64,000 nucleotides of DNA from Pseudomonadota bacterium (GTDB lineage Bacteria > Pseudomonadota > Alphaproteobacteria > 16-39-46): contig JAFEBT010000001.1 of assembly GCA_018242545.1 (NCBI GenBank), positions 23,180 through 87,179 of the forward strand. Direction: 5' to 3'. The notes beneath the pieces were generated by a model. It was not told the DNA's origin and made no database searches. It worked only from the letters and a program-made list of their open reading frames with translations. Made by a program: the position numbers and the translations under genes. Positions 5,541 through 49,800 of this stretch are shown piece by piece (position 1 is the first letter of the stretch; each line of letters opens with the position of its first letter).

Positions 5541-6512
5541 TTATCCTGTAACAGCTTTCAATTCAAGGAGAGAGAGAACCTGAAGTCTCTTCAAGTTAAA
5601 GCAAAGAGCTTGCATAAAAAGAGCAAACTGGTTTTTAGCAATTCCTTTGTATCTTACCCTTTTAGGATCTTGCGAGAAGACGCGTTCATAAGGGGCTCTT
5701 ATTTTAGAATACCAACGGTCTTGATCCACATTCTTAGTTTTCATATTATTCTTCCTAATTGCCGCTAGGTGACATCCTTTCTGAAGAGCAATCTCAGTTG
5801 CCGGAGAGGTGCAATATCATTTATCCGTATACACTGCTCCCTGAGAAGGACAAACATGTTTAAGCCCACGTGCATCCGTCACATTTGCGGCCGTAAGAGC
5901 AACTTTGTTAATAAGTCCAGACTGCATATCAACAGAGACATGCTTTTTATATCCATACCAATACTTGCTCTTTCCTATGCATCCAATCCGAGCTTGTTTA
6001 TCTGCAGCAACTTTAGGCAGTACTTTATTGTTTAATTTTTCATACTTTTCAGCAATTGCCTTATCTCTTCCTTCTCAAAGGCTTGCTTTTGAAATCAGAT
6101 GGCTCGCATCGACAAACGTATACACTTCGTTCATATACCCTTTTATTTTAAGCTCCTTACGCAATTGCTCAAAAAGTTTTGACAAAAGATTTGTTCCTAT
6201 TTTACTCCGTGTCCGTGTAAACACCGTCTGATCTGGCACGTCTTCCAATAAACCAAAACCACAGAACCACTTTCCAGCATTATTCTCTTTTAAAAACACT
6301 TCCAGTTCTCGATCACTCAGATCTTCTAAAAACTGCAGCAAGAGACATCTAAACAACCTCTCAATGCCATATCCTTCATGAGGGTTTTTCTTTTTAACAG
6401 TCCTCAGCATTCTATCAACGGTTTTAAAATCCCAGACTTTCATAAATCCTCGATAGCGATGGTTCTCTTCCACCATTTGGTCCAGGCTCACCATTTCTAC
6501 TTGATACATCAA
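5541..6512 (-). mobile_element. Decayed IS5-family (IS1182/IS5-like) transposase, split by at least two frameshifts/stops into three reading frames
   Basis: Minus-strand pieces: N-terminal segment MMYQ...LLQFLEDLSDRELEVFLKENNAGKWFCGF (6075-6512). Central DDE-core segment ARIGCIGKSKYWYGYKKHVSVDMQSGLINKVALTAANVTDARGL (my own translation of ~5800-6070). C-terminal segment VRYKGIAKNQFALFMQALCFNLKRL (5541-5744). All are hallmark IS5-family motifs but lie in different frames. Confidence 0.75.
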
Positions 6513-7284: not shown

Positions 7285-7956
7285 ATGAAAAAAATTATAA
7301 CCATTTCTGTCCTGAGCTTAGGAACTGCTTCTTTTGCGGCAGTATCTGCCAAAAATTTTACGGGTTCTTATGTAGGGCTCACCATGGGACCTAACTTTTT
7401 CCAATCAAAGGCTTACCAAACTTATTCCAATGAGTTTGCTGATTATAATGCAAGTTCTACCCTTTTTAACTATGGAGTTTATGGAGGGTATGGGGTTTTA
7501 TATGATCAACTTTATTTTGGAGGTGAGCTCCTAATATCTGCAAACTATGGTGACGCAAAATCTGTTCATCAAAATCATGCTGGGGCTATAACACCTTCTA
7601 TCTCTGTTAAGGAACCTTATTCTGTTATACCTGCTTTTCGTTTAGGAACTTTAATTCTGCCAAAATTTCTCGCATTTATAAAGCTGGGTATAACAGGAAG
7701 TCAATTTAAGGGAAGCGCAACTCCTTTAAATGGAACTGGAACAACAATCTACAAAAAAAATATGTGGGGCCCTTCTGTGGGTGTTGGAGGTGAAATCCTT
7801 CTCACTGAGACACTTTCAGCACGTGCCGAGTATATCTACACCACCTATCCTGCTTATAAATTTTCTGTTACAAGTTCTGCAGGTATATCTTCAGACCAAA
7901 TTAAGATAAAACCAAGAGACAATCGTTTACTTTTTGGACTAAGTTGGAACTTTTAG
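7285..7956 (+). CDS. Outer-membrane beta-barrel protein (OmpA-like TM barrel/OMP_b-brl family), signal peptide
   Basis: Signal peptide MKKIITISVLSLGTASFAAVSA. Alternating hydrophobic beta-strand pattern, Gly/Tyr-rich. C-terminal ...LFGLSWNF ends in an aromatic residue, as is typical for OMPs. Start taken at the second ATG (7285) of the ORF 7252..7956. Confidence 0.65.
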   Translation: MKKIITISVLSLGTASFAAVSAKNFTGSYVGLTMGPNFFQSKAYQTYSNEFADYNASSTLFNYGVYGGYGVLYDQLYFGGELLISANYGDAKSVHQNHAGAITPSISVKEPYSVIPAFRLGTLILPKFLAFIKLGITGSQFKGSATPLNGTGTTIYKKNMWGPSVGVGGEILLTETLSARAEYIYTTYPAYKFSVTSSAGISSDQIKIKPRDNRLLFGLSWNF

Positions 7957-13726: not shown

Positions 13727-15004
13727 ATGACAAAAAAAATCCTGCTCGCAAGTTGCATCGGCAGTATGCTTGAAATGTTTGATTTTTATATTTATGCAAC
13801 GTTCCTTAATGTCATGGCCTCTACTTTCTTTCCAACAGAAAATAAAATACTCAGCTTATTTATTAGTGTTGGAGGATGGGGAATTGCACTTATCGCGCAC
13901 CCCATAGGAGCTCTTATATTTGGATATTTTGGAGATATATTTGGACGTAAAAACACCTTCGCTTTTACTTTAATTTTCATGAGTTTTCCAACTATTATTA
14001 TTGGAATTCTTCCTTCTTATAATGAAATTGGAATTATAGCTCCTATTATCGTCATTACAGGAAGATTAATTCAAGGTATTTGTTATGGAGGAGAACTCAA
14101 TGGTGCTTTTATTTTTGCACTCGAACATATGCCCCAAAAACAAGGACTTGCTTCTGGCCTCATTATTTCTTCATGTGTGTGTGGAATTTTAAGTGCAACC
14201 GCTTTAAGTTATATTACCCAGCTTCCAGGCATGCCAAGTTGGGCTTGGAGAATTTCTTTTTGCTTAGGTGGATCTGTAGGATTCATTGGATATTTTATTC
14301 GAAAAAAGCTTATTGAGAGCGATGAATTTTTAAGAACATTTTCAAAAACAAAAATCCCACTTTTTACAATTATTCATAAACGTAAAACAGCTTGTTTTTT
14401 ATGTTTTTCTATTGGAGCTTTAATTGGAGGCTTTTTTTATATTGATTTTTGTTTTTTAAGTGTTTACCTCTCCCGATATTGCCATTTACCTTCAGAAACC
14501 ATTTGGAAATTAAACATATACTTAATATTATCAATTATGAGTGTTGGTCCATTATTTGGCGCTCTTTATGATCACCTTAAATCTCCCCTCTTTTTAAGAG
14601 TTATGTGTTATGGCCTTTTTTTTGGCACAATCCCTGTTTTTTGGCTCCTTTTATCACATCTGGCTTTTCTTTTTATATTAGGTGGCATCCTTTTAGGTAT
14701 TTGTACAGCAAGTATTTCAACCGTGGGATTTGTTATCATGCAAAATTTATTTCCTGTGAAAGAAAGATATAGTGGGATTTCCCTTTTTTACTGTCTTGGA
14801 ATATCAATTTATGGTGGAATCTCCCCTCTCTTTTATATAGAAGCTATTGAAATTCATAATGAAAGTTTGTTTTTTCCAGCCTATTGCCTTATGTGTCTCA
14901 TTAGTTTATTTTATGCTGCTTTAAAAATTAACAATGTCACGGAACAGAATGCACCAATAAGAAATGATCAAGTCTTTTTTGAAGATATAAAAAAAGCTGG
15001 ATAA
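13727..15004 (+). CDS. MFS transporter, metabolite:H+ symporter-like (ProP/KgtP-like)
   Basis: 12 predicted TM segments. Motif GYFGDIFGRKNTFAFTLIFMSF resembles the MFS/MHS signature G..GDR.GRK. Confidence 0.7.
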   Translation: MTKKILLASCIGSMLEMFDFYIYATFLNVMASTFFPTENKILSLFISVGGWGIALIAHPIGALIFGYFGDIFGRKNTFAFTLIFMSFPTIIIGILPSYNEIGIIAPIIVITGRLIQGICYGGELNGAFIFALEHMPQKQGLASGLIISSCVCGILSATALSYITQLPGMPSWAWRISFCLGGSVGFIGYFIRKKLIESDEFLRTFSKTKIPLFTIIHKRKTACFLCFSIGALIGGFFYIDFCFLSVYLSRYCHLPSETIWKLNIYLILSIMSVGPLFGALYDHLKSPLFLRVMCYGLFFGTIPVFWLLLSHLAFLFILGGILLGICTASISTVGFVIMQNLFPVKERYSGISLFYCLGISIYGGISPLFYIEAIEIHNESLFFPAYCLMCLISLFYAALKINNVTEQNAPIRNDQVFFEDIKKAG

Positions 15005-15039
15005 ATCAAAAAACTTTTGTGTAAAAAAGAGCCCGCTTT

Positions 15040-15090
15040 TTAAGCAAAGCGGGCCAAATATTCCCTAGCGCAGCGCAAGGGATTGGGAGA
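15040..15090 (-). terminator. Intrinsic terminator hairpins in the convergent gap (mainly serving the minus-strand gene)
   Basis: GCCCGCTTT-loop-AAAGCGGGC stem, followed on the minus strand by a T-run. A second hairpin, TCCCT-AGCGCAGCGCA-AGGGA, is adjacent. Confidence 0.5.
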
Positions 15091-15092
15091 AA

Positions 15093-15656
15093 TCATATAC
15101 CAACTGCTTGCGCATTCAGAGATGTTAAGAATGAAAAGTCCTTTTCATTAAACGCTTTGATATGCTTAGAAATTAAATTGTAACGTATATATCTTTGCTC
15201 TTCTCTCAAAAAAAGAATCATGCGATCCAAAACAACAAATAATCCTAAAATATCTTCAGGAAACAAAGGATCAAATTTTTTAAGGGGTAAGTTAAACATG
15301 GAAAAATCAATCGAATATAAAAGGTCCCAAGAGACTTTTAAATGCTCGTGATCAATACAATTTAAAAATTCCTTAAGAGACCCTAAAGAAAGATTCGTTT
15401 CTTCATTATCTTGAATTGCAAGATCTCTTACATCAATTAAATTACAAAGATTTTGGAGTTCTTTTTGAGTTTCTTCCTCATCCCAATAACTCGGATCTTT
15501 TTCAGAAAGTGTCAAGATTTTATTAAAACAAGCCCACCCTTTATCTGAAACAGAAGAGCAAAAATTAATTGCATAATCCAAGTTCTTTAAGTGTATTTCA
15601 ATTTCACTCACAAATCTTTTTTGAGTAAATTCTTCAAAACAGCATAGCGCACCCAT
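15093..15656 (-). CDS. Hypothetical protein (acidic, Leu-rich), no family recognised
   Basis: 187-aa ORF followed by terminator hairpins. No recognisable motif. Confidence 0.35.
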   Translation of the reverse strand: MGALCCFEEFTQKRFVSEIEIHLKNLDYAINFCSSVSDKGWACFNKILTLSEKDPSYWDEEETQKELQNLCNLIDVRDLAIQDNEETNLSLGSLKEFLNCIDHEHLKVSWDLLYSIDFSMFNLPLKKFDPLFPEDILGLFVVLDRMILFLREEQRYIRYNLISKHIKAFNEKDFSFLTSLNAQAVGI

Positions 15657-15991
15657 ATTTATTCCCTTCCCTTAAATTATATAGAAATTTAATTTTTATA
15701 CTTGGTATTTTTCGTAACGTATGGTACAAAATTATATACCACATTTATTGTGATATAAAATGAAGCTTACCTAATGTCAATATTATTTTTCACTATAGAC
15801 ATTTTTTCTTAAGATCTTGTAACCTAAGAAAAAAGATATAGTGGTTACTTTTAATGAAAAAGTAGAAAGGTTTGAATTGATTCTAAGTGTCCTTCTTAAA
15901 AATACTTCTCAAAGAATGAACCTTTTGATGAATTTTCAAGAGATGCGTTCCTTTTTTCATATAGAGTGTCTCTTTATTTAGGAAAAAAATT

Positions 15992-16444
15992 ATGTCTCAC
16001 CTTCAAAACTACATTCGAAAAAAACTTGAAGAAAAAAATATGTCTATTAATGCGCTTGAACGTGTTGCTGGACTCAAGACAAATGCTGTCCATAATATTC
16101 TTAAAGGAGCTTCAAAAAACCCTAAAAAGGAAACTCTTCTTGCAATTGCAACAACTTTTGAATGTTCTGTAAAAGATTTAACAGAAGGTATTGACGAAAC
16201 AGAAGGTTTGACTTCTTCCTCTTCTCAAGATAAAACTTCTCAAGAGGCTAACCCGACTTGGGACCCTGATCTTTATGCTAAGATAATAGAGATTCTAACG
16301 CCAATTCTTGCAAAAAGAACGACCCTTCCTCTCACAAAAAAAATTCATTCTCTAATTTGGGAAATTTATCTTTATTCTTTTTTCCATGAAGAGAAAAAAG
16401 TTGACCCGCGTTTTGTAGAATGGCTCATTAACAAATATTCTTAA
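15992..16444 (+). CDS. XRE-family HTH transcriptional regulator
   Basis: N-terminal HTH: IRKKLEEKNMSINALERVAGLKTNAVHNILKGASKNPKKETLLAIATTFECSVKDL (Cro/C1-type). Confidence 0.7.
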   Translation: MSHLQNYIRKKLEEKNMSINALERVAGLKTNAVHNILKGASKNPKKETLLAIATTFECSVKDLTEGIDETEGLTSSSSQDKTSQEANPTWDPDLYAKIIEILTPILAKRTTLPLTKKIHSLIWEIYLYSFFHEEKKVDPRFVEWLINKYS

Positions 16445-16497
16445 TCTCAAAGATCACTCTTTTTTATTTAGAAAATTTAGAGAAAATATAATTTTTC

Positions 16498-18093
16498 TTA
16501 TTTAGATTTGAAAAGATTTATAATATTAAGATTAGAATAATTTTTAGTCTCTGTCTCAAGAGAATTCTTAATAATAATTTCTGTTATATTAAAAGGTCCT
16601 TTCTTCTCTCCCCTGACAATTGACCAGCCAAGAGAGTGAGCTATTTTCATAAGATTTCCCTGTGCCGGATCAACCAAAAAATCTTTTTCATATCTAGAAG
16701 AAATTGAATCCAGCTCTTTCAAATAATTTTCAGATAAAATAAACCCATTATCTTCTATCATAAGCTTTGATATATTGAGGCGCGTTTCAAGTTTAAGCTT
16801 TATGAGACCGTTTGGAGGAACTCGCAAAATACATTCTTTTAAAATAAAATAAACAAGGTAATATAAAACTGACAATTCTCCATAAATTAAAAAATCTCTC
16901 CCTTTAATTGATATTTTAATATTATTTTCAGCAAGCTCTTCAGAAAAACTCATGATAACTTCTTGAACTGTTTTGCTGAATGAAAGTTTTACAAGGCGCG
17001 GATGAAGTTCTAATTGCTTTAAGGTCTCAGAAAATTTTCCAAGAGCTTCTTCAATTTCTTTATCTTTACATTTTATGATGAGTGCTTCTTGCAGAGGTTG
17101 CAGTCCTTTTAAAAACTCTTTTGAAAAAGGAAATATTTTCTTAAAAATGCGCTCCTTCCCCCTGTTGGAAGATTCTTGATCAGAATATTTTTTTTGTAGT
17201 ATTAGGTTTTCCTGTTGTAATTTTTCAACTTTTATATGCGATGCAGAGATTTTTTTTAACACCTCTTCATATTGGCTCCTATTCTTTTCATTAATTAATT
17301 TTGTTAATTTAAGAACATTCAATATAAAAGCCCCCAAGCCCACCCCAACAAAAAACAAGCAACAAAATAAAAATCCTAGTCGATTGCATAGAAAAAAATT
17401 GCCCCAAGAATCTGTATAGATTAAGTCCAAATAATTTAGAAATTCTCCTGGATCTACGACGAAAGAGTCCGACTTATTCTTAAGCCCTAAGTCAACATTT
17501 TTAAGCCCTGCATGCTTTACAAACTCTTTAAGATCCTGACTTATAAAAAGAATACAAGGTATATTCTCCTCATAAAAAAATCCTTTTGCAAAATATAATT
17601 TTTCATTTTTATAAAAAATCTTAAATTTATCAATTTCAAAGTAACACCTTTCAATAATTTCTTTTGGAACAAATTTTTCTTGAATAAGTCCATGTTTATT
17701 ATAAATATGTTTTTCTTTTCCAATAAGGAGAGCAATACAAAGAGAATGGGTATGGGGGTTAGATTTTATAAAAAAATTAAAATCTGAATTTTCATTCAAT
17801 TTAATTATGTTTTTTTTATCAAAGATCAATGTCCCAAAATTCAAAATACGCGCTAAATCCGAATCTATTAATTTTTCGAGCTCATTGATCTTGCTAAATA
17901 TAATGCGTTCGGCCTCTTTAAAATCGTCTTTTTTATTCTTCTCATAAGAAATAAAAGATTCCCCTAAAAAACAAATAACGATTGAAATTGCCAAAAACAA
18001 GGACCATAAAGACGCTTTCCATTTAATTTTGAGGGGGGTACTATCATTCATAATAATGTCTCTACAAAGAATTCGATCTTTTTGTATAAACAA
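16498..18093 (-). CDS. Sensor-histidine-kinase-like membrane protein with apparently degenerate H-box
   Basis: Two TM segments flank a ~200-aa putative periplasmic domain. A coiled-coil and a HATPase_c-like C-terminus follow (N-box-like YFILKECILRVPPNG, G1-like IEDNGFI). At the position where the H-box SHELRTPL is expected, the sequence reads SKEFLKGL, i.e. His appears replaced by Lys. Confidence 0.5.
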   Translation of the reverse strand: MFIQKDRILCRDIIMNDSTPLKIKWKASLWSLFLAISIVICFLGESFISYEKNKKDDFKEAERIIFSKINELEKLIDSDLARILNFGTLIFDKKNIIKLNENSDFNFFIKSNPHTHSLCIALLIGKEKHIYNKHGLIQEKFVPKEIIERCYFEIDKFKIFYKNEKLYFAKGFFYEENIPCILFISQDLKEFVKHAGLKNVDLGLKNKSDSFVVDPGEFLNYLDLIYTDSWGNFFLCNRLGFLFCCLFFVGVGLGAFILNVLKLTKLINEKNRSQYEEVLKKISASHIKVEKLQQENLILQKKYSDQESSNRGKERIFKKIFPFSKEFLKGLQPLQEALIIKCKDKEIEEALGKFSETLKQLELHPRLVKLSFSKTVQEVIMSFSEELAENNIKISIKGRDFLIYGELSVLYYLVYFILKECILRVPPNGLIKLKLETRLNISKLMIEDNGFILSENYLKELDSISSRYEKDFLVDPAQGNLMKIAHSLGWSIVRGEKKGPFNITEIIIKNSLETETKNYSNLNIINLFKSK

Positions 18094-18448
18094 ACAAAAT
18101 ATCCTTAATTTTTTCAGATTAAGGAAAAAACAAATTTTTAAGAAATATTCCTACTTTATCGAGGATGCCTCCATTCTAAATTTTCCTGATCAGAAGCCGT
18201 CTTCAACATAAATCTTCCTCTTTCGCCTAATTTGTCTGTTTCTCGATATTTCTTAAGTGTATTCTATTTATATTTAAAGTTAGCCTATTGTCAATAGACA
18301 TACTTTAGCTCACATTTTAATGATTTTAGACAAATTAAACTTTATTTTTCAAGGCCATAAAATTCTAAAGAAGATGTTTTTATTTTTTTTGATAATTTTA
18401 AGAGTTGCATTTATAAATCTTCCATAAAAATATTTTTATTTAAATTTT

Positions 18449-19372
18449 TTAATAGTCAGTTCCTTCATCGACAAATATTTTTAAAAGTCTTTGGAAGCCA
18501 GGATCTTTTTGATTTAATAGCTCAAGGTATTTTTTATAAGAAATCTTACCATTTTTAATATATCTTGCAGCCATCGTCACATCTAAAGGAAAATGGGGAA
18601 TGTGGTTTAAAAATTGCAAAGCTGCTTCTCTTTCTTGAAGGTCTAAAACGTTCGGAGAGAAGTCAAAGAGGATTGAAGAAAAAAGAGTTAAGGCCTCTTC
18701 TTTTTGAAGTTCTCCAACTTTAATAATATCCTCAGGCTTTAAATATTTATAATCTTTCAAATTTTCATCCCGTGTTACCAAAAGTACCTTCCCTGTTCCC
18801 CAAAGAGCTGTATCTTGAGGAAGATAATTTTCGATCTCAGAAAAATTTTTGATATTGTCATATATAAGAAGCCAATTCTTATGGTTTTTAAGAATCTTTT
18901 TTACAAAGGAAAGAAATGAGAGAGCTTGGGTCTCTAAATCTTCTATGTTTTCAATTTTTATAAGTTCTTCTTTCTCTATATGTGTCGTTGCTAAAGAGTA
19001 GGCAAAATCCTTAAAAGAGTGACTTAAGGTTTCTTTATTTTCCGCATTAAACTCCCATACAATTTTGTCATGTTGCGCATATCCATAATATCGCGCCAAA
19101 ACTGTTTTCCCGCTTCCCTTTTCTCCAACAAGCGCAATAACATCTATTCGATTTTCTTCCAGACCCTTACCTTTTTCCTCGATCTGAGAGACAAGCTGAG
19201 GACGCTTAAGAAGCGTGTTTTCTTTGGGAATAACCAACTCAGCTTTTACATTTCTAAGTGCATAATCTGGTTTATATATTTCCTTTGAAAAAAAGGCGAC
19301 AAGACTGAGAATAATCCCAATAAAAAAAAGAGTATAAATTTTTCTTTTTAACTGAATCGAATAAAAAAACAT
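18449..19372 (-). CDS. Truncated paralog of the LuxR-NB-ARC-TPR family: N-terminal TM helix plus NB-ARC/P-loop NTPase domain only
   Basis: 307 aa. Residues align closely with the NTPase portion of the 1143-aa neighbour: LLKRPQLVSQIEEK...IALVGEKGSGKTVLARYYGYAQHD...NWLLIYDNIKNFSEIENYLPQD...GKVLLVTRD...FPLDVTMAARYIKNGKISYKKYLEL versus LLKRFDLISKIDEK...GMGGVGKTTLARYYGHMQHD...NWVLIYDNVENFSEIKNYFPQD. Confidence 0.7.
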   Translation of the reverse strand: MFFYSIQLKRKIYTLFFIGIILSLVAFFSKEIYKPDYALRNVKAELVIPKENTLLKRPQLVSQIEEKGKGLEENRIDVIALVGEKGSGKTVLARYYGYAQHDKIVWEFNAENKETLSHSFKDFAYSLATTHIEKEELIKIENIEDLETQALSFLSFVKKILKNHKNWLLIYDNIKNFSEIENYLPQDTALWGTGKVLLVTRDENLKDYKYLKPEDIIKVGELQKEEALTLFSSILFDFSPNVLDLQEREAALQFLNHIPHFPLDVTMAARYIKNGKISYKKYLELLNQKDPGFQRLLKIFVDEGTDY

Positions 19373-19560
19373 TTTAAATCTCTTAAATCTTTCTTACTTT
19401 GTTAAAAGTCTCTGGCTTTTATAAGACGGAGACTCAAGAAAATATATATTTTCTAATTAATAATTATCTTTAAAATATCAAAAAGAAATTATATATCGAT
19501 TTTTATCAAATAACGTACCGTACCTAACAATTTTCTGATCTAATTTTTCTCAACACGCTT

Positions 19561-27877: not shown

Positions 27878-30034
27878 TTAACATATTTGCGTTCGAATAT
27901 TTTGAACAGGAGACATCTTCTCCCAAGAGCTAAAACTGACGTCCCCAGATGGAAGCTCTGTTCTAAGTCTCTTTTCAAGAAATGATGAATGATAGAGAAA
28001 AAACGGAAGGCCTGAACTTCCCCAAGGCGCTTTCTGCCGAGCCTCTCCACATCCAAGCCATTCCCCATCGAAACTTCCACTTGGCCAGTGAATGTCTTCT
28101 GTTGGTCTGTTTCCAGATTTCATATACCAAGAAGAAGATTTATGCTCATGCATCTCTTCATAAACTTTACAAAGATTTTTACTTTTTTCAGGAAGGGCTT
28201 TCCCAATAATTTCCTTGAAGAAAGTTCCATCTGGTCTTCGATATATTTGAACCTCATGTTGCGGAACAATTTTAAAACATCCTTCATAAAAGGCATTTTC
28301 CTCATCTGCTAAGACCTGTATATCTTCTGGAGTGTAAGCAATAGACGGTAAAGAAGCCTCCTGTTCTTTTGAGTTCTTGATGACAACACTACCGGCATAA
28401 GGAACATCAATATATATTTCTATCTGAGGCTGTGAAGATTTCGTCTCGTCATTATGAACATATCCGATAAGTCGCGTGTGATGTAAAAACACATGCTCTG
28501 AGGGTTCACAATCTGTGACAAAAATTCTTTGATCTCCGCTCTTATAAAAAAAACGAGAATATCCCTTTGATTGACCCGTTTCAAAATTATGATCAAATTT
28601 TTGGGAACAGCCTTCTGTTGTCTCTTCCAATTCTTGAGAAGGTCGACAACGTGTCAAAAATAAAGGTCCTTCTCGAGATTCAATCATAACACGAACTTGG
28701 ACAAACCTTTTTCCTGATTGAGGATCAACAATAGGGGGACATCCCAGAGTTGAACCCTGATGTGGAAGAGCTTCACCATCATCACGACAGGGTGTTATTC
28801 TTCTTTCATGACCTTTTATAAAGGTAACAATACGCGTTTGAGGAATCGATTTTTTCTCTTCAAAATTATGATGATATCCGCAAAAAATCTTTTCGAGACG
28901 CAGCTCTTCTTTTTTTGAATGAGGACGGCATTCTTCTATAACAATGCGTCTTTTTCGGTAATCTTTATAAATAAGGGTTGCCATTTGATGCGCTGTCATT
29001 TTCTTTAGATCGACGTCAAGGTCACATGCGTCCTCTTCTTCTAAAATCTCAAAAGTGATGTCTTCATCGGGTTTGCAAATCTCATCCACGCGATGTACTT
29101 CGCCTTTATCGTCTACCCAATAATGCTTATACTGGGGATGAACCCGTCCTTCCTCTTTTAATATATAATCTGGGCATTCTTCATAATGCTTTTTAAGTGG
29201 ATATCGCTCATTTGAATCAGAACAAGGCTCCTCCTTATATATTTTTCCATTTTTTCGAATAATAGATCGCGTTTGAATGATTGCACTTTCCTGCTTTTTA
29301 TCAATACGGACAGAGCATCCTTCCTTTAAAATATCGATCTCAAGGTTTTCGGGAATAAATCCAAGGGAATTTTCAGAAAAAGACCCTTTAACTTTTTTTT
29401 GTTTCTTTTTCTTTTTTTGAAAAGGCTGCAAAGAGAAGCCTTCTTGTCCAAGATATCTCTTTTCTTCAGAATTATAATTTCCTTTCGTAAAACTTTTCTC
29501 CACGCTTGAAATTTTTTCAGAAAACATACCTTTCTTTTTATCTTCTAAGGAAGGAGATTTATGGGAAAGAAGCCAATCTTTTTTGTAGATCTCTTGTATT
29601 TTTAGAAAAAAAGTATGCAAATCTCCTTTAACCTCAAGTTCTGTCCCTCTTGGAATAAAAGAACTTTTAACTTCAGAATACAATTTCTCTACTTGCATGC
29701 TTCTTGAAAAACTTTGCTCTCTTTTTACAAGTGCCTCCTTCCACACAATTAAAAACTTTTCTTTTCGAGATGAGTTCGATTTTTGTCTTCCTTTTTTATA
29801 AATACCTTTTAATATTCCTTTATAGCTTTGAGATTCATTTCGCCCTTTTATTCTAAAATGTACGGTTATTTTTCCACCTCGAGATGAAAGCGTTTGATTT
29901 TCAAAAGAATAAGCTTTGATCATTGGGAAATGAGCCTCTGTTTTCATCCCTGCACAATAAAAAAGCGCAATTACACTAAAAAAGAAAATCTTTTTTTCCC
30001 CTTTTTTCTTCCAAGACATACTTCTTAAAGTCAT
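27878..30034 (-). CDS. Large secreted Cys/Lys-rich protein of unknown family embedded in the T4SS operon (between virB10 and virB11)
   Basis: 718-aa ORF with an N-terminal signal peptide (KKIFFFSVIALFYCAGM). About 16-17 cysteines are spread over the length. There are poly-Lys tracts (QKKKKKQKKVK). No TM segments. Its start overlaps the virB10/trbI stop, suggesting translational coupling. No recognisable family motif. Confidence 0.6.
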   Translation of the reverse strand: MTLRSMSWKKKGEKKIFFFSVIALFYCAGMKTEAHFPMIKAYSFENQTLSSRGGKITVHFRIKGRNESQSYKGILKGIYKKGRQKSNSSRKEKFLIVWKEALVKREQSFSRSMQVEKLYSEVKSSFIPRGTELEVKGDLHTFFLKIQEIYKKDWLLSHKSPSLEDKKKGMFSEKISSVEKSFTKGNYNSEEKRYLGQEGFSLQPFQKKKKKQKKVKGSFSENSLGFIPENLEIDILKEGCSVRIDKKQESAIIQTRSIIRKNGKIYKEEPCSDSNERYPLKKHYEECPDYILKEEGRVHPQYKHYWVDDKGEVHRVDEICKPDEDITFEILEEEDACDLDVDLKKMTAHQMATLIYKDYRKRRIVIEECRPHSKKEELRLEKIFCGYHHNFEEKKSIPQTRIVTFIKGHERRITPCRDDGEALPHQGSTLGCPPIVDPQSGKRFVQVRVMIESREGPLFLTRCRPSQELEETTEGCSQKFDHNFETGQSKGYSRFFYKSGDQRIFVTDCEPSEHVFLHHTRLIGYVHNDETKSSQPQIEIYIDVPYAGSVVIKNSKEQEASLPSIAYTPEDIQVLADEENAFYEGCFKIVPQHEVQIYRRPDGTFFKEIIGKALPEKSKNLCKVYEEMHEHKSSSWYMKSGNRPTEDIHWPSGSFDGEWLGCGEARQKAPWGSSGLPFFLYHSSFLEKRLRTELPSGDVSFSSWEKMSPVQNIRTQIC

Positions 30035-31095
30035 TTGGAATTTCTTTCAGAAATTGAGGTTTCGTTTTCGATAGGTGAACGCAGCCAAATATCCGTCATG
30101 GGAATAATCTGAAGGCGCGATCCTGCAGCAACATTAACAATGGGAGCTAAATTAATATGTGAGTTAAGAAGCCCAGTTGTAATATTTCCAAGATTAACAC
30201 TCAAATTTCCAGCTGCTTGGCGAACAAGCGATGTCTCAGAAGTGTCAGCCCCCGCAGCTGCAAGGGCTGAAATCCCTGCAACAATAAAAGAAGAACTATA
30301 TTTTTCCCAAATACGATTATCGACCTTTCCGATAAGTCCTGTACGCGCCATTTGATCGGCCGCATAAGCATCTGTTAGAAGAACACTTGCCCCATCCGGC
30401 CTGATGGCTCTTCCACACACAGCATTCAAACGCGTATCACCCTCTTTAACAAGAGATTTATAAGAACAAATAATACGCGTTCCTTTTGGTAATAAGATAT
30501 TGCGCCCTTCATTTGCAAAAACATGCCTTTCAACAATAACAATAAACCGTCCTCCGAGTTGACTATTAATGGCATTCTCTAAAATAACAGGAATATAACG
30601 ATCTGCCGTAAGAACACGATCTCCTTTTACAGGAAATGTCGAGAGGTCTTCGCCAATACCTTTTAAGCGCGAAACATAATTTGAATCCGTTAAAATTAAA
30701 GAAGCTTTTTCTTCGGAAATATTTTCTCTCTCAAGAAAAGAGAATCCAGAACGCTGGTGAAGAGAATTTTTTCTCTCTCGGCTTACTTTATTTAAATACA
30801 AAGATTTTCTCTCTTTTTCAGGTTTTTGTGAATGGTTTTGGGCTTCAAGGAGAGCATGAAAAGCTGCTTTATTTTCTTTTTCCATATCACTTGTCTCTTC
30901 AAAAGAATCGACGTCGTCTATTGAGGAGATTTCTGAATCGAGAGAAATATGATCAAGATTATGTAAAAAGCTCGAAATTTCTGAATTAAAATTCAATCGA
31001 TTAAGAATCGTTTTGTTTTTTTCTTCTTGGCATCCTTCAAGACAACTCCAGGACAATCCCAAAAGGAAAAACCGAAACCCACGTTTAAAAAACAT
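30031..31095 (-). CDS. virB10: T4SS protein VirB10/TrbI
   Basis: The C-terminal domain has the conserved VirB10/TrbI pattern (...RIICSYKSLVKEGDTRLNAVCGRAIRPDGASVLLTDAYAADQMARTGLIGKVDNRIWEKYSSSFIVAGISALAAAG...). Pro/Ser-rich N-terminal region. Confidence 0.8.
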   Translation of the reverse strand: MFFKRGFRFFLLGLSWSCLEGCQEEKNKTILNRLNFNSEISSFLHNLDHISLDSEISSIDDVDSFEETSDMEKENKAAFHALLEAQNHSQKPEKERKSLYLNKVSRERKNSLHQRSGFSFLERENISEEKASLILTDSNYVSRLKGIGEDLSTFPVKGDRVLTADRYIPVILENAINSQLGGRFIVIVERHVFANEGRNILLPKGTRIICSYKSLVKEGDTRLNAVCGRAIRPDGASVLLTDAYAADQMARTGLIGKVDNRIWEKYSSSFIVAGISALAAAGADTSETSLVRQAAGNLSVNLGNITTGLLNSHINLAPIVNVAAGSRLQIIPMTDIWLRSPIENETSISERNSK

Positions 31096-31098
31096 TTT

Positions 31099-31947
31099 TT
31101 AAGATTCCATTTTTTCAATACAAATAACTTTCTGACCATTTTTAAGCGTCAAAGGTGGAAGACCATGAACAATTATTTTTGATCCCTCTATACATGTATT
31201 TACGGGCGTATCAACCTCATCTATCCGTTGATAGATTGCCGGCAAAGGCTTTCCATCCCATGCTTTTCCATAGTCAAGCCATGTCCATATACCATCCGAA
31301 TAGACTCTTTCTGGCGCAATATCCAGAGACGCTAAATCTTTTTGGAACATATTATAGGAGAAGATTAAATTTTCTGAAGAAAAAGGAACTTGTTGTAGGT
31401 AATCTATTTCTGCTTCTTTAAGGAAAACTTCTTGAAAAGGGCTTTCTCTTCCTCCTTTTACTTCTATATAAACAACGATATCTGGAACGTGAGAACTGTG
31501 AATTCCTAAAGAACGAATATAAAAAGGATAAATGTTTCCTGTTTTACCAATAAGAGTCAGGCTCGTATCACACCCTTCTTCTTTTGCTAAAATAGAAATT
31601 AAAGAAGGACCTTTCTTTTCAACCAAAAAAAAATGATCATCTCCCAAAATAACCTCTAAAATTTCTTCCCATTTAGGCAAGGAAATCGTTGTTGTCATAA
31701 AGGGACGCGTTTTAACACGAACAACATGATCTTTTTGATACCCGACCCTATAAACACCTGCCTGTGGAGGAGCAGCAGCCCAGGCTTCTTGAGCCTGCTC
31801 TAAAGGAACACTTTCAGGACGCACAAATGCCTCTAAATCTTCTTCTTTCTCTCTTTCAATTTTTAATAAATCTTGGGGTTTTTCTCCGTCCATAGCCCAA
31901 AGACATTTTGAAAAAAGAATCATACTTACCATGATATATTTCCTCAT
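31099..31947 (-). CDS. virB9: T4SS protein VirB9/TrbG
   Basis: Signal peptide. VirB9 beta-domain pattern YRVGYQKDHVVRVKTRPFMTTTISLPKWEEILEVILGDDHFFLV... and a C-terminal conserved region. Confidence 0.7.
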   Translation of the reverse strand: MRKYIMVSMILFSKCLWAMDGEKPQDLLKIEREKEEDLEAFVRPESVPLEQAQEAWAAAPPQAGVYRVGYQKDHVVRVKTRPFMTTTISLPKWEEILEVILGDDHFFLVEKKGPSLISILAKEEGCDTSLTLIGKTGNIYPFYIRSLGIHSSHVPDIVVYIEVKGGRESPFQEVFLKEAEIDYLQQVPFSSENLIFSYNMFQKDLASLDIAPERVYSDGIWTWLDYGKAWDGKPLPAIYQRIDEVDTPVNTCIEGSKIIVHGLPPLTLKNGQKVICIEKMES

Positions 31948-32684
31948 TCCTCTTTTTCCCCACCACTTTTTTCAGAAACGCCATATGCTGTAACAATAAA
32001 TCCAAGAGGATTCATATATCGATCTTCAAATTTTACGTTTTGTGATATATAAGTAATGCTTAAAGTTGATACCCAATTTTTTTTATAAATTTCCCCACCT
32101 TCTTGATAATCTTTTCCCTGCCATTCCACTTGAACAATTCGAGGATTTTTCGAAAGTGTCGAGACTGAAAGAAGGATAACATCTCGATAGAGTTTTTTCT
32201 CTTTTCGAGATTCATAAATTCCGCCCTGATCCTTATTCATGAGAGCTTTAAAATTCTCAAAAATTTCAAAAGAACTAAACCAAAAAACTTGTTTCCAGCG
32301 ATCTGCTTCTGTTTGAAAATCAAGTGTTTCTCGCAGACGAACATAATTTCGAGCAAGGCTTTCTGTCATTACATCAAATCCTTCTTCTTGGTCTTCTATG
32401 GGCTCGATTTTGACAATTTGCTCAGATTTAGGCATTAATGTAATAAAAAAGGGAACGATTGTTTTGAGAGGAAATAAATTTATCATTAAAACAGCACAAA
32501 CAATATTTATAAAAAGGGACATCAAAAAGCCAAATCCTAAAAAACGAGCGACCCAAATAAGCATACGATATACATGGCCCGTCTCAATAATCCGTCCTTC
32601 TGTTATTAGGGTTGTTTCATTGAAAGAAGAATAACTTTGAAATTTAAAGCCTTTTAGAAGCCTTAAGAGTTTTTGAATTGTCAT
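31944..32684 (-). CDS. virB8: T4SS protein VirB8/TrbF
   Basis: Bitopic topology: short cytoplasmic N-terminus, one TM (WVARFLGFGFLMSLFINIVCAVLMI), then a periplasmic NTF2-like domain. Position between the lipoprotein and virB9. Confidence 0.65.
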   Translation of the reverse strand: MTIQKLLRLLKGFKFQSYSSFNETTLITEGRIIETGHVYRMLIWVARFLGFGFLMSLFINIVCAVLMINLFPLKTIVPFFITLMPKSEQIVKIEPIEDQEEGFDVMTESLARNYVRLRETLDFQTEADRWKQVFWFSSFEIFENFKALMNKDQGGIYESRKEKKLYRDVILLSVSTLSKNPRIVQVEWQGKDYQEGGEIYKKNWVSTLSITYISQNVKFEDRYMNPLGFIVTAYGVSEKSGGEKEE

Positions 32685-32702
32685 TTTTAAAAACTCTCTT
32701 TT

Positions 32703-32867
32703 TCAAACAAGAAAACCATTTTGATAAAAAAGTGTTCCACAGGGACACGCAGACCTTTTTAAAGAATCTGCATCAGATCCGATACCGACGGGTTCTTCTT
32801 CAGATGTTGAGCATCCTGCTGTAAATCCCATAATAATTAAAAATACAAAATGTAATTTCATTTTCTT
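32703..32867 (-). CDS. Small lipoprotein at the VirB7 position
   Basis: MKLHFVFLIIMGFTAGC... has a lipobox (TAGC), followed by a short Cys-containing mature peptide. Located between the virB6-like and virB8-like genes. The upstream ATG at 32930 is probably not the real start. Confidence 0.45.
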   Translation of the reverse strand, partial: KKMKLHFVFLIIMGFTAGCSTSEEEPVGIGSDADSLKRSACPCGTLFYQNGFLV

Positions 32868-32901
32868 CCTTTCTGACATCAGCGTTGAAACATTAAAAAA
32901 A

Positions 32902-33843
32902 TCACCAAAATTTTCTGAGATTATTCCCAAAAAGCGAAAAGGTACTTTCAGTCATTGGGAAAGAAAGCCCTTCCTGATATGAAAAACAAGAAATTTGTTT
33001 TGCAAAATAGGAAGCTTTTAAATGAAAAAAGACTGATAGAAATCCTAAAATCCAAATAGCCCAATATTGAGAAGAAAATATAAAATCTGAAATCTCTTCT
33101 GAAGCACCTTCCGGTCCAATGGGAATTAAGGGAGAAAACTTATGAAAAATCTCAATTGTAAATCCCATAGCAATTGAAGAAAACAAGAGAGTCATAGCTC
33201 CATGTAATGTAATTCGTACAGCATTTAGAAGAATTGAATGCAAAGATTTAAAGCACATAATACTATAGAGAAGAGGACAAATAGCTGTAATAATGAGAAA
33301 TGCAAATATAAACTCCAATAAAAATGCTAAAAATATACAAATAACAAAAAGATAAGGAATAATTAAAATAAAAGCCGCCAGAATTGGTTTCCAAGAAAGC
33401 CATCCTCCTTCCCCAATGAGGATGTTCCAGATCTCAAAAATAGTTTTACTTAAAGATTGATCAACAGTTAAAAGCATTCCCCGGAATGTTGGATCGGATG
33501 GAGAAATTTTTCCCAAAGTTACAATTTTTTGAGCTAAGGCTGAAATAAGTTCTAAAAAGGGAGTATGAATAAAAACCCAAAAAAAATCTGATCCCTGTAA
33601 AAGACTTTCCACAAAAACAAAAAGCAAACTTTTTTTCAAAAAATACCCAAATCGAAAATCTCCTCGTAGAATTCCTTTAAAGACAATATACCATGCCACC
33701 CAAGCTGTCACATAAGCCGTAAATAATATACGTGAAGGGGGAAGTAATGCTTTATATATACTTTGCCCATATTGCATACCAAAATCATAAAAGGCAGAAA
33801 ACATATCGCATATATAACATCGATAAGAATGGGGTCCCTCCAT
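32902..33843 (-). CDS. virB6: T4SS protein VirB6/TrbL (polytopic inner-membrane)
   Basis: 313 aa, 6+ TM helices, including the characteristic central hydrophobic block with conserved Trp (WLSWKPILAAFILIIPYLFVICIFLAFLLEF). Operon position. Confidence 0.65.
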   Translation of the reverse strand: MEGPHSYRCYICDMFSAFYDFGMQYGQSIYKALLPPSRILFTAYVTAWVAWYIVFKGILRGDFRFGYFLKKSLLFVFVESLLQGSDFFWVFIHTPFLELISALAQKIVTLGKISPSDPTFRGMLLTVDQSLSKTIFEIWNILIGEGGWLSWKPILAAFILIIPYLFVICIFLAFLLEFIFAFLIITAICPLLYSIMCFKSLHSILLNAVRITLHGAMTLLFSSIAMGFTIEIFHKFSPLIPIGPEGASEEISDFIFSSQYWAIWILGFLSVFFHLKASYFAKQISCFSYQEGLSFPMTESTFSLFGNNLRKFW

Positions 33844-34619
33844 TACACAAGCTCCCTTTTCTTGGAAGAAGTTTTTTCAAGCACAATGGGAAGATTAAAT
33901 CCATCTTTCATGTTTTGAGTTTCTAAAAGTTGAATAAGGAGTGCACGGGTTAGAATGAGTTCATGGGCTATGAAACTTAAAAGTCTATTTGTTGTTGTTG
34001 TATCTGATCTTAAATTTGTCGCTAATTCTGCTTCTTTTAGAATGAGAGAAAGATCAAAAGAGGCGCTTTTTAATGTTTCTCTTTGATGCGCAACAAAAGC
34101 TAAGCCCGTTATGATTGATTCTTTAAAATGAGATTCACGAAATTTTAAAATCTCATCTTGACATTCTTTTGATATATATTTTTTACCCTTAAAAGATCCC
34201 ACCCAAAATTTTTCAAATAAATTGCGGTAAGATAGAAAATCAAAATTTTTTTCATCTTTTTTATAAGAGCTCCCACCTGCCGAAAAAGGAAGGAGAGAAA
34301 GTCTTTCTTTTTTGAGCATTGATTCTATTTCAGAAAAATTAAAAGCTTCTCCCTTCCCTAATATATTCTGCAAGGATTCAATACCAGAGTTCATCGCTTT
34401 CATTTTACGAGCAGATTCTCTAAAAACAGATAAAAGTTGATTTGTTAATCCATATGTTGATGAGTCAAAGACGCTCAAAACTGCGCTACATGTTAAAGGA
34501 AAAAAAAGAACAAGACCTATAATGTAACTTCCTTTCTTAAAATTTCCTGCCCATAAATTTTTTAAAAAATTTTTTTTTAATAAGCTTCTAAGTAATGATC
34601 TATCCATTTTTCTCCCCAT
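33843..34619 (-). CDS. T4SS protein VirB5/TrbJ-like (secreted coiled-coil minor pilus component)
   Basis: Signal anchor (GSYIIGLVLFFPLTCSAVLSVF) followed by an alpha-helical ~220-aa domain. Location between the VirB4-like and VirB6-like genes. Confidence 0.5.
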   Translation of the reverse strand: MGRKMDRSLLRSLLKKNFLKNLWAGNFKKGSYIIGLVLFFPLTCSAVLSVFDSSTYGLTNQLLSVFRESARKMKAMNSGIESLQNILGKGEAFNFSEIESMLKKERLSLLPFSAGGSSYKKDEKNFDFLSYRNLFEKFWVGSFKGKKYISKECQDEILKFRESHFKESIITGLAFVAHQRETLKSASFDLSLILKEAELATNLRSDTTTTNRLLSFIAHELILTRALLIQLLETQNMKDGFNLPIVLEKTSSKKRELV

Positions 34620-46843: not shown

Positions 46844-49800
46844 ATGTCACTAGAAAATAATAAATTTTTTGATTATGATAAAAATATAGAAGTAATAAAT
46901 CATATAAAATTTACGCCTCGTGAAATAGATATTATAGCATGTATTTTATGTGGAAGAACAGCTAAAAAAGATATTGCTTTTATTTTATCTATTCAGCCGC
47001 GAACTGCTGAAACCCATACCCGAAATATTATGCATAAAATAAGGTGTAATGGATGGGGAGGCATCAGAGACTTTATAGAAAAAACTGGATATAGTGATCT
47101 TATAAGACATCACTATACCTCTCTTCTTCTTCAAAAAGAATTTAATCATTGTTTAAGACAAATTTTCTTACTCATAAAAAAAGAAGAAAATATATTAGAT
47201 CTGCAATTTTTTTCAGACATAAAAAATTCAGATGGTTTATTTTTTAGAATCTTGAAAGATCTAAGAGATATGGGTATTAATGTTCATGTGAGAGAAGATA
47301 AGAATTCTTTTGATATCCATAATTATAGTGTTTTTTTTATTACTGCTGGGACTATAAAAAAAATATGTATGCTCCTTCAAGATCCAACGTTTTTATCAAA
47401 AAATCATATTTTTATCCTTTGGGATAAAAGTCTAATCTTAGAAGATTTTCCTGATTTAAAAAATATTTCTTATTTAGATTTTAAAAGCCAAAATTATTAT
47501 TTTTCTTTTTTCTATTTTTTAGAAAAATTTATATCTCCTTCTGTCGTAGAGAATATATTTTTTGAGTTTAAAAGAGAGTATAAAAAATTTTTCAATTCCT
47601 CTGAATGTGCTCAGTTTAATTTTTCTTCCGAAGAACACATACATAAAAAAAAAGAAATTTCAGACAACATTTATATGGATGCTGTTAAAAATAAAAAAAA
47701 TTATTTTATGATTTTATTTTTGTGCATGATTATTTTAAGCGTATTTCTTTTTATTTTTACGCAAAATAATCAAAAAATAAAAATTAGCCCCTTATCAAAA
47801 AAAGATTTGTCTATGAGATCTGAATTGATTGTTCCAATAGAAAGTGTTTTTCTAAAGCGTTATGACTTAATCAAAAAAATGAATGAAGCGTTAAAAAGTC
47901 AACATAAAATACGTATAATTGCCCTTGTTGGAATGGGAGGGGTTGGAAAAACCACGATCGCACGTTATTTTGGAAAAACTGATCAAAGCTCTATTGTATA
48001 TGAGCTAAATGCTGAAACAAAAAAAAATCTTATTAATTCATTTGAAGAATTAGCTTACAAGATAGCCAAGACTCCGGATAAGAAAAAAGAACTAGAGATC
48101 ATTCAAAAAATTCAAAATATAGAATTAAAAGAAAAAAAATTGATTTATTTTGTGCAAGAACAGTTAAGAGAACACCCCAATTGGCTTCTCATTTTTGATA
48201 ATGTTCAGACTATATCAAACATTAAAAAGAATTATCTTCCTCAAGATTCAGAAATATGGGGGTCTGGAAAAATAATTATCACAACACGTGATAGTACAAT
48301 AAAAAATACAAATTACATAGAACCTCAAAATATTATTGAAATTGGAGAATTAAATAAAGAAGAATCTTTAATGCTTTTTAGTAAAATATTTTTCAACAAG
48401 GAATCAAATAAATTAACATTAGATCAAAGAGAAAAATGTTTAGAATTTCTTAAAAATATTCCTCCTTTTCCTTTAGATATTTCTATTGCTGCTTATTATA
48501 TTAAAAATGAACAGTTAACTTATGATCAGTACATACATAGAATTAACCAATACACTAAATTTTTTGATAAAACTCAAGAAAATCTCTTAAAAGAGATAAG
48601 CGACTCCACAAAAACACGCTTTGGAATAATTACATCTTCCCTTGAAAAATTTATAAATATAAATCCAGATTTCAAAGAGCTCTTATTATTTATTGTACTT
48701 TTAGATTCACAAAATATTCCTAAAAATTTAATAGCACTCTATAAAGATGAGCCAAGTATTGAGCAGCTTTTATATTATTTAAGAAAAAATGGTTTTATCA
48801 CCAAGGTATCTTCTATTGAAAATGGAGAAGAAGCTCCTCTATTCTCCATTCATCGATCATCACAAGAGATTATTTTAGCTTCTCTTAAAAATATACTAAC
48901 AGAAGATGAAAGAAAGAGATGTTTATGTCAAGTAATAGAAGCTATAAAAATTTATCATAAGATGTATTTAAAAAAGAATTGCAGAAATATTATTTTACTT
49001 ATTCCTCACATAGAAAAATTGCAGCAAAATTTAAATAAAATTTTAATATCATCTAAAGATATAGAGCTTTGTAAAATAGAAACTTTAATAGCGCTTGGAA
49101 ATTCTCATCGATATTGTACCCAAAATTGTGAAGCCGTTAGAAGTTATTTTTTAGAAATTTTAGAAATAAAAGATATCAAGAAAAAAATTTCTTCTTATAC
49201 TTTATTAACAATCTTTGCAGACTTGGGATGGGCTTCTTATATTTTAGGTCTTTTCGATCAAGCCATTTTCTATTGTCAAGAAAGCATAAAATTGTGCAAA
49301 CGAAACTTAGAATCTGAAGAAATGGAGGCGCAAAACCTTTTAAACACGGCAATTTCTTACTACCAGAAAAATGAAAAAGAGAGCTTTGAAAAAAGTTGTT
49401 CATATTATAAAAAAGCTCTTTCTATAGCATTGAAAATAAAGGATGAGAATCTTAAAAACTCGTTTATTGTAACTATATACAATGATCTTTCATTTTTATA
49501 TAGAACCACGTACCTCCATAAAAAAGAAACATTGATTGGTAAAAAATATGTGCAGAAGGCATTAGATTTATTAAAGTCTAATGAGCTTTTTCATCTAACC
49601 TATAAAAAACTTCCAGAAGAAAAAATTAAAGATATTTTGAAAGCACGTTATGCAATGGGGCAAGTTTATTGTAGACTTGGACAATATGAAAAAGCTTTGA
49701 AAGAAGGATGCATAGAAGAGCAATATATCATTAATTTTATTGAATCTACTGGGAATAAAATTAGTCTTACCATAGAAAAGCCTCTACTCGCTGAGAGTTT

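Follow-up and report, generated by a model that had tools for sequence, protein, structure and literature searches.

A family of probable transmembrane pseudo-histidine kinases encoded opposite an XRE-family regulator in uncultured Alphaproteobacteria

We analyzed a 64,000-nucleotide stretch of an alphaproteobacterial genome (contig JAFEBT010000001.1 of assembly GCA_018242545.1; hereafter the window) and identified in it a gene for a 531-amino-acid (aa) membrane protein that belongs to the pseudo-histidine kinases: it has the histidine kinase (HK) fold, lacks the phospho-acceptor His and is encoded by a gene under selection. The assignment as a pseudo-kinase is well supported by the computational evidence, and that of the fold is solid. 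We consider it probable that this protein is a membrane pseudo-histidine kinase of HisKA descent that relays a signal to a partner by protein contact. Since the phospho-acceptor His, the N-box Asn and the glycine-rich ATP lid are lost, it most likely neither autophosphorylates nor feeds a response regulator, and to judge from the aligned relatives the family appears to have given up phosphorylation chemistry completely. Conserved synteny points to a small XRE-family regulator as the best-supported partner, and gene order is also what suggests wiring to STAND-type proteins. A sequence-only reading of this DNA had proposed a dead HK scaffold next to STAND regulators as a non-canonical signaling arrangement. 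The dead scaffold is supported, but synteny favors the XRE gene (11 of 12 loci), whereas linkage to STAND genes is confined to the family's long-form subclade. Pseudo-histidine kinases as such are already known; what is new is a transmembrane family with a conserved XRE partner. The family was found solely in uncultured Alphaproteobacteria, and our search of the literature found no description of it.

The full-length protein has no match in Pfam, even at E = 10, and histidine kinase models of NCBIfam match it faintly over residues 362-494 (13-17 bits, E 0.003-0.04), with a best score of 16.8 bits against a cut-off of 550. Comparison with PDB sequences by phmmer and by a four-sequence profile gave only coiled-coil noise. 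A profile search of 1.84 billion representatives recovered 12 proteins. Eleven are Pfam-negative relatives, comprising long forms (~515-535 aa), short forms (~320-396 aa) and fragments, and the remaining hit, P0015 (E = 4.5e-6), is a true HAMP-HisKA-HATPase_c kinase. A word-indexed homolog search (14-sequence alignment) returned just the four close homologs already known. Alignment of the family to P0015 with hhalign gave 97.1% probability, spanning helix alpha2 to the G1 box. When the 14-sequence profile was compared with PDB, the CA domain of ThkA was the best match (E = 0.0086), with KinB also at the top.

Structure prediction agrees with this remote homology. The AlphaFold2 (AF2) model of residues 262-531 has a pLDDT of 79.7 and a pTM of 0.70, and its top Foldseek matches are DivL, HK853, WalK and KinB (E as low as 3.5e-11), with alignments to DHp plus CA structures spanning 204-246 columns. 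In the model, helix alpha1 (263-320) leads through a turn at F321-P322-F323 into alpha2 (324-360) and then into an alpha/beta domain. The region thus modelled comprises a DHp helical hairpin followed by a CA domain with the Bergerat fold of GHKL ATPases, which bears out the earlier description of the C-terminus as HATPase-like. The nearest class is the HisKA type (EnvZ/PhoR/VanS). A full-length AF2 model, built from a four-sequence multiple sequence alignment, was poor (pLDDT 51.5), and its top Foldseek match was a full-length model of WalK; we used it solely for secondary structure and this rough Foldseek check.

Helix alpha1 carries no conserved phospho-acceptor His (H-box H-E/D-x-x-T/N-P) in any alignment register. 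The invariant columns among the four closest homologs (56-77% identity) include no His, and in the wider family His is sporadic and occurs at differing positions. The window protein has a single His in alpha1, H286, and even the ortholog at 77% identity lacks it. The lack of a conserved His is robust across the registers compared, and the profile alignments, in which none was found in the dimerization helices or elsewhere, agree with the sequence-only reading that the phospho-acceptor was lost. That reading had taken SKEFLKGL as the counterpart of the H-box, but these residues (324-331) fall past the hairpin turn, at the start of alpha2 and outside alpha1. Ser309, 12-13 residues ahead of the turn, pairs with the His of P0015 in HMMER, and this distance is close to that of the phospho-acceptor His in HK853 and EnvZ. 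Among the 11 family members aligned at this column, nine have Ser, one (P0008) has His-Asp and one has Ala. The three methods disagree on the register (HMMER selects S309, hhalign leaves alpha1 unaligned and MAFFT gives another), and the region that holds Ser309 is the likelier equivalent of the His site.

The ATP-binding site is degenerate as well. The two N-box Asn residues of P0015 pair with F416 and E420, both in HMMER and in the hhalign alignment, so that Glu420 stands where a genuine HK has the Asn. Family members carry E, N or K at the Mg-binding position and Phe in place of the first N-box Asn. The G1 box (DxGxG) reads D448-N-G450-F-I452; its Asp and first Gly are near-invariant, and the position of the second Gly is occupied by I, V, L, S, F or A. 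The G2 box (GxGLG) reads A485-H-S-L-G489-W490, and the family keeps only L-G(-W). The suspicion, raised from the sequence alone, that the N-box Asn and the G2 box were degenerate is therefore correct. An intact N/G1/G2 site, which would have spoken for a working kinase, was not found: the Asn has given way to E, N or K, and neither the second Gly of G1 nor the glycines of G2 are left.

The gene is nevertheless not in decay. Its open reading frame (ORF) is intact at 12 of 12 loci, and dN/dS against the orthologs is 0.11-0.21 overall (Nei-Gojobori) and 0.07-0.35 for individual domains (CA domain ~0.16-0.20, and 0.35 against the most distant ortholog, at locus L011). Given the overall values, we infer that the gene is kept by selection. 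A decaying HK remnant, that is, a pseudogene in the making, would account for the loss of all catalytic motifs, for the fast evolution of the protein (56-77% identity, against 75-80% for the neighboring XRE protein) and for the low local GC content (~30%). It is effectively refuted by the selection analysis and the intact frames, and the family also conserves motifs that are not those of kinases, which makes this account extremely improbable. These motifs are a (K/E)KI(F/Y)P turn (KIFP), YYxxYFxxK within the N-box helix, LGW and, in the last strands, FNxTEI. In addition, the C-terminal tail ends in S/L-N-[IV]-I-x-L-F-K, which is kept in 10 family members, among them a soluble 246-aa member (locus L012) from another metagenome-assembled genome (MAG). 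A short conserved motif on a disordered tail would be typical of a docking peptide.

As the sequence-only reading described, two hydrophobic segments flank a loop, although the loop measures ~183 aa rather than ~200 (Table 1). A long helix follows the second segment. The Lys-rich flanks of the transmembrane (TM) segments, as read from the sequence, place both termini in the cytoplasm. The extracytoplasmic domain (residues 50-232) is confined to the long-form subclade and has no relative among Pfam and PDB sequences. Its mixed alpha/beta character was taken from the secondary structure of the low-confidence full-length model, and its likeness to PDC/Cache domains is only an impression. An AAGGA Shine-Dalgarno sequence precedes the TTG start by 8 nt. 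An in-frame ATG at 18051 (M15) is a second possible start, and the homolog alignments begin at about residue 10 (M-x-R-D-P-L-K-I-K). The 355-bp gap upstream of the gene holds a promoter-like site, although such sites were no more numerous in the consensus scan than expected from shuffled sequence. An identical protein has been deposited from a Proteobacteria MAG as a hypothetical protein, and three close homologs were recovered alongside it. A profile of the close-homolog alignment found one locus among GTDB genome contigs, in "Alphaproteobacteria bacterium 16-39-46." PADLOC models matched neither the pseudo-kinase nor the short NB-ARC protein, the 187-aa protein or the STAND protein of locus L001, which are described below.

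Table 1. Features of the pseudo-kinase gene and its surroundings, in positions of the window
Feature	Position	Strand	Details and basis
187-aa conserved protein, divergent from XRE gene	15093..15656	-	No Pfam match
Palindrome TATGGTACA-N6-TATACCACA, candidate XRE operator	15720..15743	.	Conserved block in four orthologous intergenic regions
XRE-family helix-turn-helix (HTH) regulator	15992..16444	+	150 aa; Pfam HTH_26/HTH_3
Pseudo-histidine kinase gene	16498..18093	-	531 aa, TTG start at 18093; ORF listing
C-terminal tail (residues 510-531), predicted disordered	16501..16566	-	pLDDT <50
CA-like (HATPase_c/Bergerat) domain (367-509), degenerate ATP site	16567..16995	-	
Signaling helix and DHp-like hairpin (263-360)	17014..17307	-	AF2 model, pLDDT 74-89; Foldseek
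TM helix 2 (~residues 233-262)	17308..17397	-	Kyte-Doolittle hydropathy
Extracytoplasmic domain (50-232), mixed alpha/beta	17398..17946	-	Between two TM segments (hydropathy)
TM helix 1 (~residues 27-49)	17947..18015	-	Kyte-Doolittle window >1.6
Promoter-like site TTGAAA-18-TAAAAT	18323..18352	-	Consensus scan, 10/12 match
Short membrane-anchored NB-ARC protein	18449..19372	-	307 aa; Pfam NB-ARC; no TPR
LuxR-HTH/hydrophobic helix/NB-ARC/TPR STAND regulator	19561..22992	-	1143 aa; Pfam GerE, NB-ARC, TPR_12
virB/trb-type type IV secretion system (T4SS) cluster (VirB11-like ATPase, TrbI/VirB10, VirB4, others)	26925-36931	-	~9 kb from pseudo-kinase

The two genes that flank the pseudo-kinase gene are those named in the sequence-only reading, an XRE gene (15992-16444, +) and a short NB-ARC gene (18449-19372, -). 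The XRE protein consists of an N-terminal Cro/C1 HTH, which resembles SinR and prophage repressors, and a conserved C-terminal domain of ~65 aa with W90, Y95, W123-E124, Y126, D138, F141 and W144 conserved in the ortholog alignment. It has a faint match to TrbA in NCBIfam (E = 0.008). In the window, its stop codon and that of the pseudo-kinase gene are 53 bp apart, and the gap contains no terminator-like hairpin.

We compared 12 independent family loci: the window, L001, L002 (of which L003 and L004 are copies), L005-L011, L012 and L015. At 11 of them the pseudo-kinase gene and an orthologous XRE gene are convergent; the XRE proteins are 138-150 aa long, 33-80% identical and share the C-terminal domain. 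A search for orthologs of the XRE protein yielded 22. Outside the window, the two genes are 5-27 bp apart in eight loci and separated by 186 bp in L012, where the 246-aa protein adjacent to the XRE gene is a member of the pseudo-kinase family. In L001 the XRE gene sits 3 bp beyond an inserted NB-ARC-TPR gene. The sequence of the twelfth locus, L011, ends within an NB-ARC-TPR gene that overlaps the pseudo-kinase stop. The outer flanks vary (GAPDH/transketolase/BipA; UvrD/RmuC/Map; ParAB, a DnaA_N protein and virB genes; virB11/HU), and the pairing alone is common to the loci, even where the pseudo-kinases are only ~20-25% identical.

More distant homologs of the XRE protein occur in other settings. 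One, 32% identical, was found on at least 24 contigs (L013/L014, 6001-10930), including a plasmid-like contig with ParA/ParB/RepA_C; ~1.6 kb of apparently non-coding DNA lies downstream of this XRE gene, where the pseudo-kinase gene would be expected. The gene for the most distant homolog (P0037; L016, 6001-9965) convergently overlaps by 6 nt that of a 283-aa receiver-domain protein, which comes after an 885-aa SSF-HisKA-HATPase_c kinase in a genuine two-component operon. We considered this kinase and response regulator as a possible ancestor of the family, but the family profile scores below zero on both, and we regard the arrangement as an unexplained coincidence.

No response-regulator gene adjoins the pseudo-kinase gene, in agreement with the sequence-only reading. 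The window has 53 listed ORFs of 120 aa or more; the 50 that were scanned, all but three in the T4SS cluster, gave no match to Response_reg, nor did the called genes flanking the pair at the 11 other loci.

On its other side, the XRE gene has a divergent neighbor that encodes a 187-aa protein. Its counterparts beside the XRE genes of L001, L002 and L005 are 77-88% identical, and that of L007 is 39% identical. The N-terminus reads MGALCC, with M1-G2 invariant and Cys5 and Cys6 present in the close orthologs. It looks like a eukaryotic N-myristoylation/palmitoylation signal, and given the nearby virB-type T4SS the protein could be a secreted effector. The intergenic region between the two genes contains a palindrome with the consensus TGTGGTACA-N6-TGTACCACA. 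It occurs once in the window (15720-15743), with zero occurrences expected by chance, and overlaps the -10 element of a promoter-like site (15759..15731) ahead of the 187-aa gene. By its position and conservation, it is likely to be the operator of the XRE protein. At the equivalent place, L007 has a different perfect palindrome, AGGACATATGTC-N11-GACATATGTCCT (7553-7587).

The STAND genes near the pseudo-kinase gene are limited to the long-form subclade and differ in placement. They lie upstream of it in the window and L005, and in L001 and L011 an NB-ARC-TPR gene is translationally coupled to it, downstream. The 1143-aa STAND regulator of the window has a hydrophobic segment at residues 289-316 and an ortholog in L005. 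The short NB-ARC protein is 56% identical to this long paralog and has a hydrophobic segment at residues 10-33. It had been described as truncated; it is not a decaying fragment, as it is conserved over its full length in L005 (74% identity) with an intact Walker A motif, GEKGSGKT. The valid P-loop and the 74%-identical ORF also rule out a pseudogene with a broken P-loop. A third STAND protein, of the LuxR type, is encoded in the window at 46844-50317 (+), far from any pseudo-kinase gene, so this is a multi-copy family in this genome.

A hydrophobic TM-like helix directly precedes the NB-ARC domain in the products of 19561-22992, 46844-50317 and 18449-19372 of the window, of 11543-13858 in L001 and of 7809-10016 in L011. 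In the two LuxR-type STAND proteins of the window it follows the N-terminal HTH and precedes the NTPase, and a single crossing at this point would place the membrane between the DNA-binding and ATPase domains.

The wider setting is chromosomal, with ffh-rpsP-rimM-trmD-rplS and lepB-rnc-era-recO. GC content is 0.30-0.34 over 14000-24000, the segment with the MFS, 187-aa, XRE, pseudo-kinase and STAND genes, against 0.39-0.41 in the ribosomal-protein segment at 1-6 kb; the low-GC segment could be an acquired or fast-evolving island. T4SS genes lie 1-9 kb from the XRE and pseudo-kinase pair in four loci (the window, L001, L007 and L012). They are not in the sequenced flanks (~4-8 kb per side) of L006, L009 and L015, where the pair is still present. 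Between the STAND genes and the T4SS cluster, a 567-aa ORF (23988-25691, -) has an N-terminal hydrophobic segment and no Pfam match at E <= 1e-4. A 145-aa ORF with a DUF772 transposase domain (6075-6512, -), in a low-GC stretch amid housekeeping genes, is probably an insertion sequence fragment. A two-piece (permuted) alphaproteobacterial tmRNA (53881-54271, -; 236 bits) confirms the assignment to this class.

Several observations weigh against a phosphorylation-free relay to the XRE protein. The G1 residues that contact adenine, D448 and G450, and also G489 are near-invariant, and four family members (P0003, P0004, P0010 and P0014) retain Asn at the Mg position; from these residues, some members may bind nucleotide. 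The His-Asp of P0008 falls in the very column that HMMER pairs with the kinase His, and the alignment behind the AF2 model holds just 14 sequences. As for the partner, all loci come from one uncultured alphaproteobacterial group, and shared ancestry inflates the synteny count. The distant XRE homologs (28-32% identity) lack a pseudo-kinase (L013/L014) or adjoin an HK-response regulator pair (L016). A convergent pair is not an operon, and the link to the XRE gene could be one of antisense or transcriptional interference. Moreover, the palindrome is seen nowhere else in the window and so gives no sign of the XRE protein acting at the pseudo-kinase, STAND or T4SS genes. The retained residues are those on which an atypical kinase or ATPase would depend, one that works through the G1 Asp and Gly and phosphorylates something other than His, for example Ser309 or a Ser/Thr in a partner protein (XRE or STAND, for instance). 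Non-His phosphorylation with this fold is carried out by PDK/BCKDK, SpoIIAB/RsbW and plant phytochromes, and the prevalence of Ser309 in the family (9 of 11 members), its pairing with the kinase His and the four members with Asn all fit such an enzyme. However, the window protein has Glu at the Mg position and six members (five aligned and the L012 protein) have Lys, which cannot coordinate Mg. Both N-box Asn residues, the second G1 Gly and the GxG of G2 are gone, and the exchange of E and N at the key position between close orthologs points to relaxed constraint there. In EnvZ-type kinases, mutation of the N-box Asn or of G2 abolishes ATP binding, which also counts against an active enzyme, and we think this explanation unlikely.

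Two further explanations concern the partner rather than the chemistry. The pseudo-kinase might be a membrane sensor or scaffold for the STAND NTPases, with the LuxR HTH as the output and the adjacency of the XRE gene incidental or regulatory. This would fit the NB-ARC-TPR genes of L001 and L011, which begin 4 nt past the pseudo-kinase stop or overlap it, the LuxR-STAND and short NB-ARC genes directly upstream in the window and L005, and the hydrophobic helix before NB-ARC in all these STAND proteins, with which both proteins would be membrane-associated. It does not account for the short-form loci (L006-L010 and L015), which have the XRE gene and no adjoining STAND genes; the LuxR-STAND proteins are multi-copy, with the third copy of the window remote from the pseudo-kinase gene, and STAND genes lie on differing sides of it between lineages. 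We therefore rate a STAND-centered system as rather unlikely. The genes might instead be linked only at the RNA level, through interfering overlapping transcripts, with the pseudo-kinase in an unrelated membrane or structural role, such as that of a T4SS accessory protein. Stop codons only 3-27 bp apart in nine loci, or 53 bp in the window with no terminator-like hairpin between them, would allow this, and the T4SS genes near four of the pairs would suit an accessory role. Yet the retention of one neighbor while protein identity falls to ~20% and the flanks change is more typical of functional partners, and the pair persists in L006, L009 and L015, where the sequenced flanks hold no T4SS. A purely RNA-level link is accordingly improbable, and a contact-based relay, with the XRE protein as the foremost candidate partner, remains the reading that we favor.

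To our knowledge, only a few pseudo-histidine kinases have been studied, DivL and PsmA, and these are cytoplasmic or polar scaffolds with two-component or cytoskeletal partners. DivL of Caulobacter crescentus (PDB 4q20) resembles the window protein in having a DHp plus CA fold without a phosphorylatable His, and both are alphaproteobacterial. DivL has neither kinase nor phosphatase activity and acts by binding DivK~P; a conserved Tyr occupies its His site, all of the H, N, G1, F and G2 boxes are kept, and it carries multiple PAS domains (PMC4211667). In the window protein, by contrast, the Ser309 region is not conserved as a His site and the N, G1 and G2 boxes are degenerate. The sensory input of DivL comes through cytoplasmic PAS domains and its partner is a response regulator, whereas the window protein has an outside domain flanked by TM helices, no PAS domain and an XRE neighbor. 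With no Tyr at the His site, no PAS domain and degenerate boxes, it is not a DivL ortholog.

In PsmA of Streptomyces venezuelae (PMC12963549), as in the window protein, both the H-box His and the ATP motifs are gone and orthologs differ in the residue that they have at the His position; PsmA acts by protein-protein interaction and is without autokinase activity in vitro. The pattern of motif loss is the same in the two proteins and goes further than in DivL. PsmA, however, is a cytoplasmic hybrid that combines PAS domains and a receiver domain with a long disordered linker and that binds DivIVA at the tips of hyphae. The window protein, from a different phylum, is a membrane sensor with two TM helices and has no receiver, and we found no sequence relationship between them. 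NifL is an HK-like sensor that controls a transcription factor other than a response regulator, NifA, by direct binding. It is soluble, senses through PAS/FAD, binds ADP in its GHKL domain and has a sigma54 activator from the same operon as its partner; the partner proposed here is a convergently encoded XRE protein of the repressor type, and nucleotide binding is doubtful. By analogy with DivL, which relays a conformational change to DivK/CckA, and with NifL, which does so to NifA, the proposed mode of action would be DivL/NifL-like with a new kind of output protein. Classical HisKA sensors (EnvZ/PhoR/VanS/QseC/WalK) share the order of TM helix, outside domain, TM helix, signaling helix, DHp and CA. 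The window protein differs from them in lacking the His, the N-box Asn, a full G1 box, the G2 glycines and a HAMP domain, and it falls below all Pfam and NCBIfam thresholds.

The XRE protein also invites comparison. In the Anaplasmataceae, XRE-type regulators of 93-121 aa (EcxR/ApxR/wBmxR1-2) control T4SS genes; histidine kinases are not mentioned in that study (PMC3518464). Like these regulators and TrbA (IncP), the protein described here is small, has an XRE-type HTH and, in four loci, has virB genes nearby. Unlike them, it has an extra conserved C-terminal domain, and T4SS linkage is missing at several loci; we liken the proteins without proposing orthology. Given the role of the Anaplasmataceae regulators, control of T4SS or effector genes is a reasonable guess here.

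Together, these features suggest how the protein might work. It has kept the scaffold of a sensor kinase, namely the outside domain between two TM helices, the signaling helix, the DHp-like hairpin and the CA-like Bergerat domain; the phospho-acceptor His is gone, together with the Asn for Mg binding and the glycine-rich ATP lid. A signal from the envelope or beyond it could travel through TM2 and helix alpha1 to the DHp/CA surface as a conformational change, and this surface or the C-terminal tail might then bind or release the XRE protein, which is a guess. Control by the XRE protein would reach the divergent 187-aa gene through the palindrome, and possibly the neighboring T4SS genes too. 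In the long-form subclade, the membrane-anchored NB-ARC(/TPR) STAND NTPases would be likely additional partners. In a more specific version, which is possible but doubtful, the two proteins would form a hitherto undescribed signaling module in protist- or host-associated Alphaproteobacteria, where a phosphorylation-free membrane sensor binds a repressor-type HTH protein through SN[IV]IxLFK or the Ser309 face and switches on T4SS or effector genes on an envelope or host cue.

The family is a whole group of transmembrane sensor kinases without the His and the ATP site, under purifying selection, that has an XRE protein in the place of a response regulator as its genomic partner. Should the physical link be true, the transmitter scaffold of a kinase has been re-used as a pure conformational relay to another class of transcription factor. 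Neither Pfam nor NCBIfam sees the family, and its members are annotated as hypothetical; counts of such degenerate sensors in reduced, host-associated genomes are therefore likely too low. It is there that each of the few regulators left counts for most, in the present case possibly for type IV secretion.

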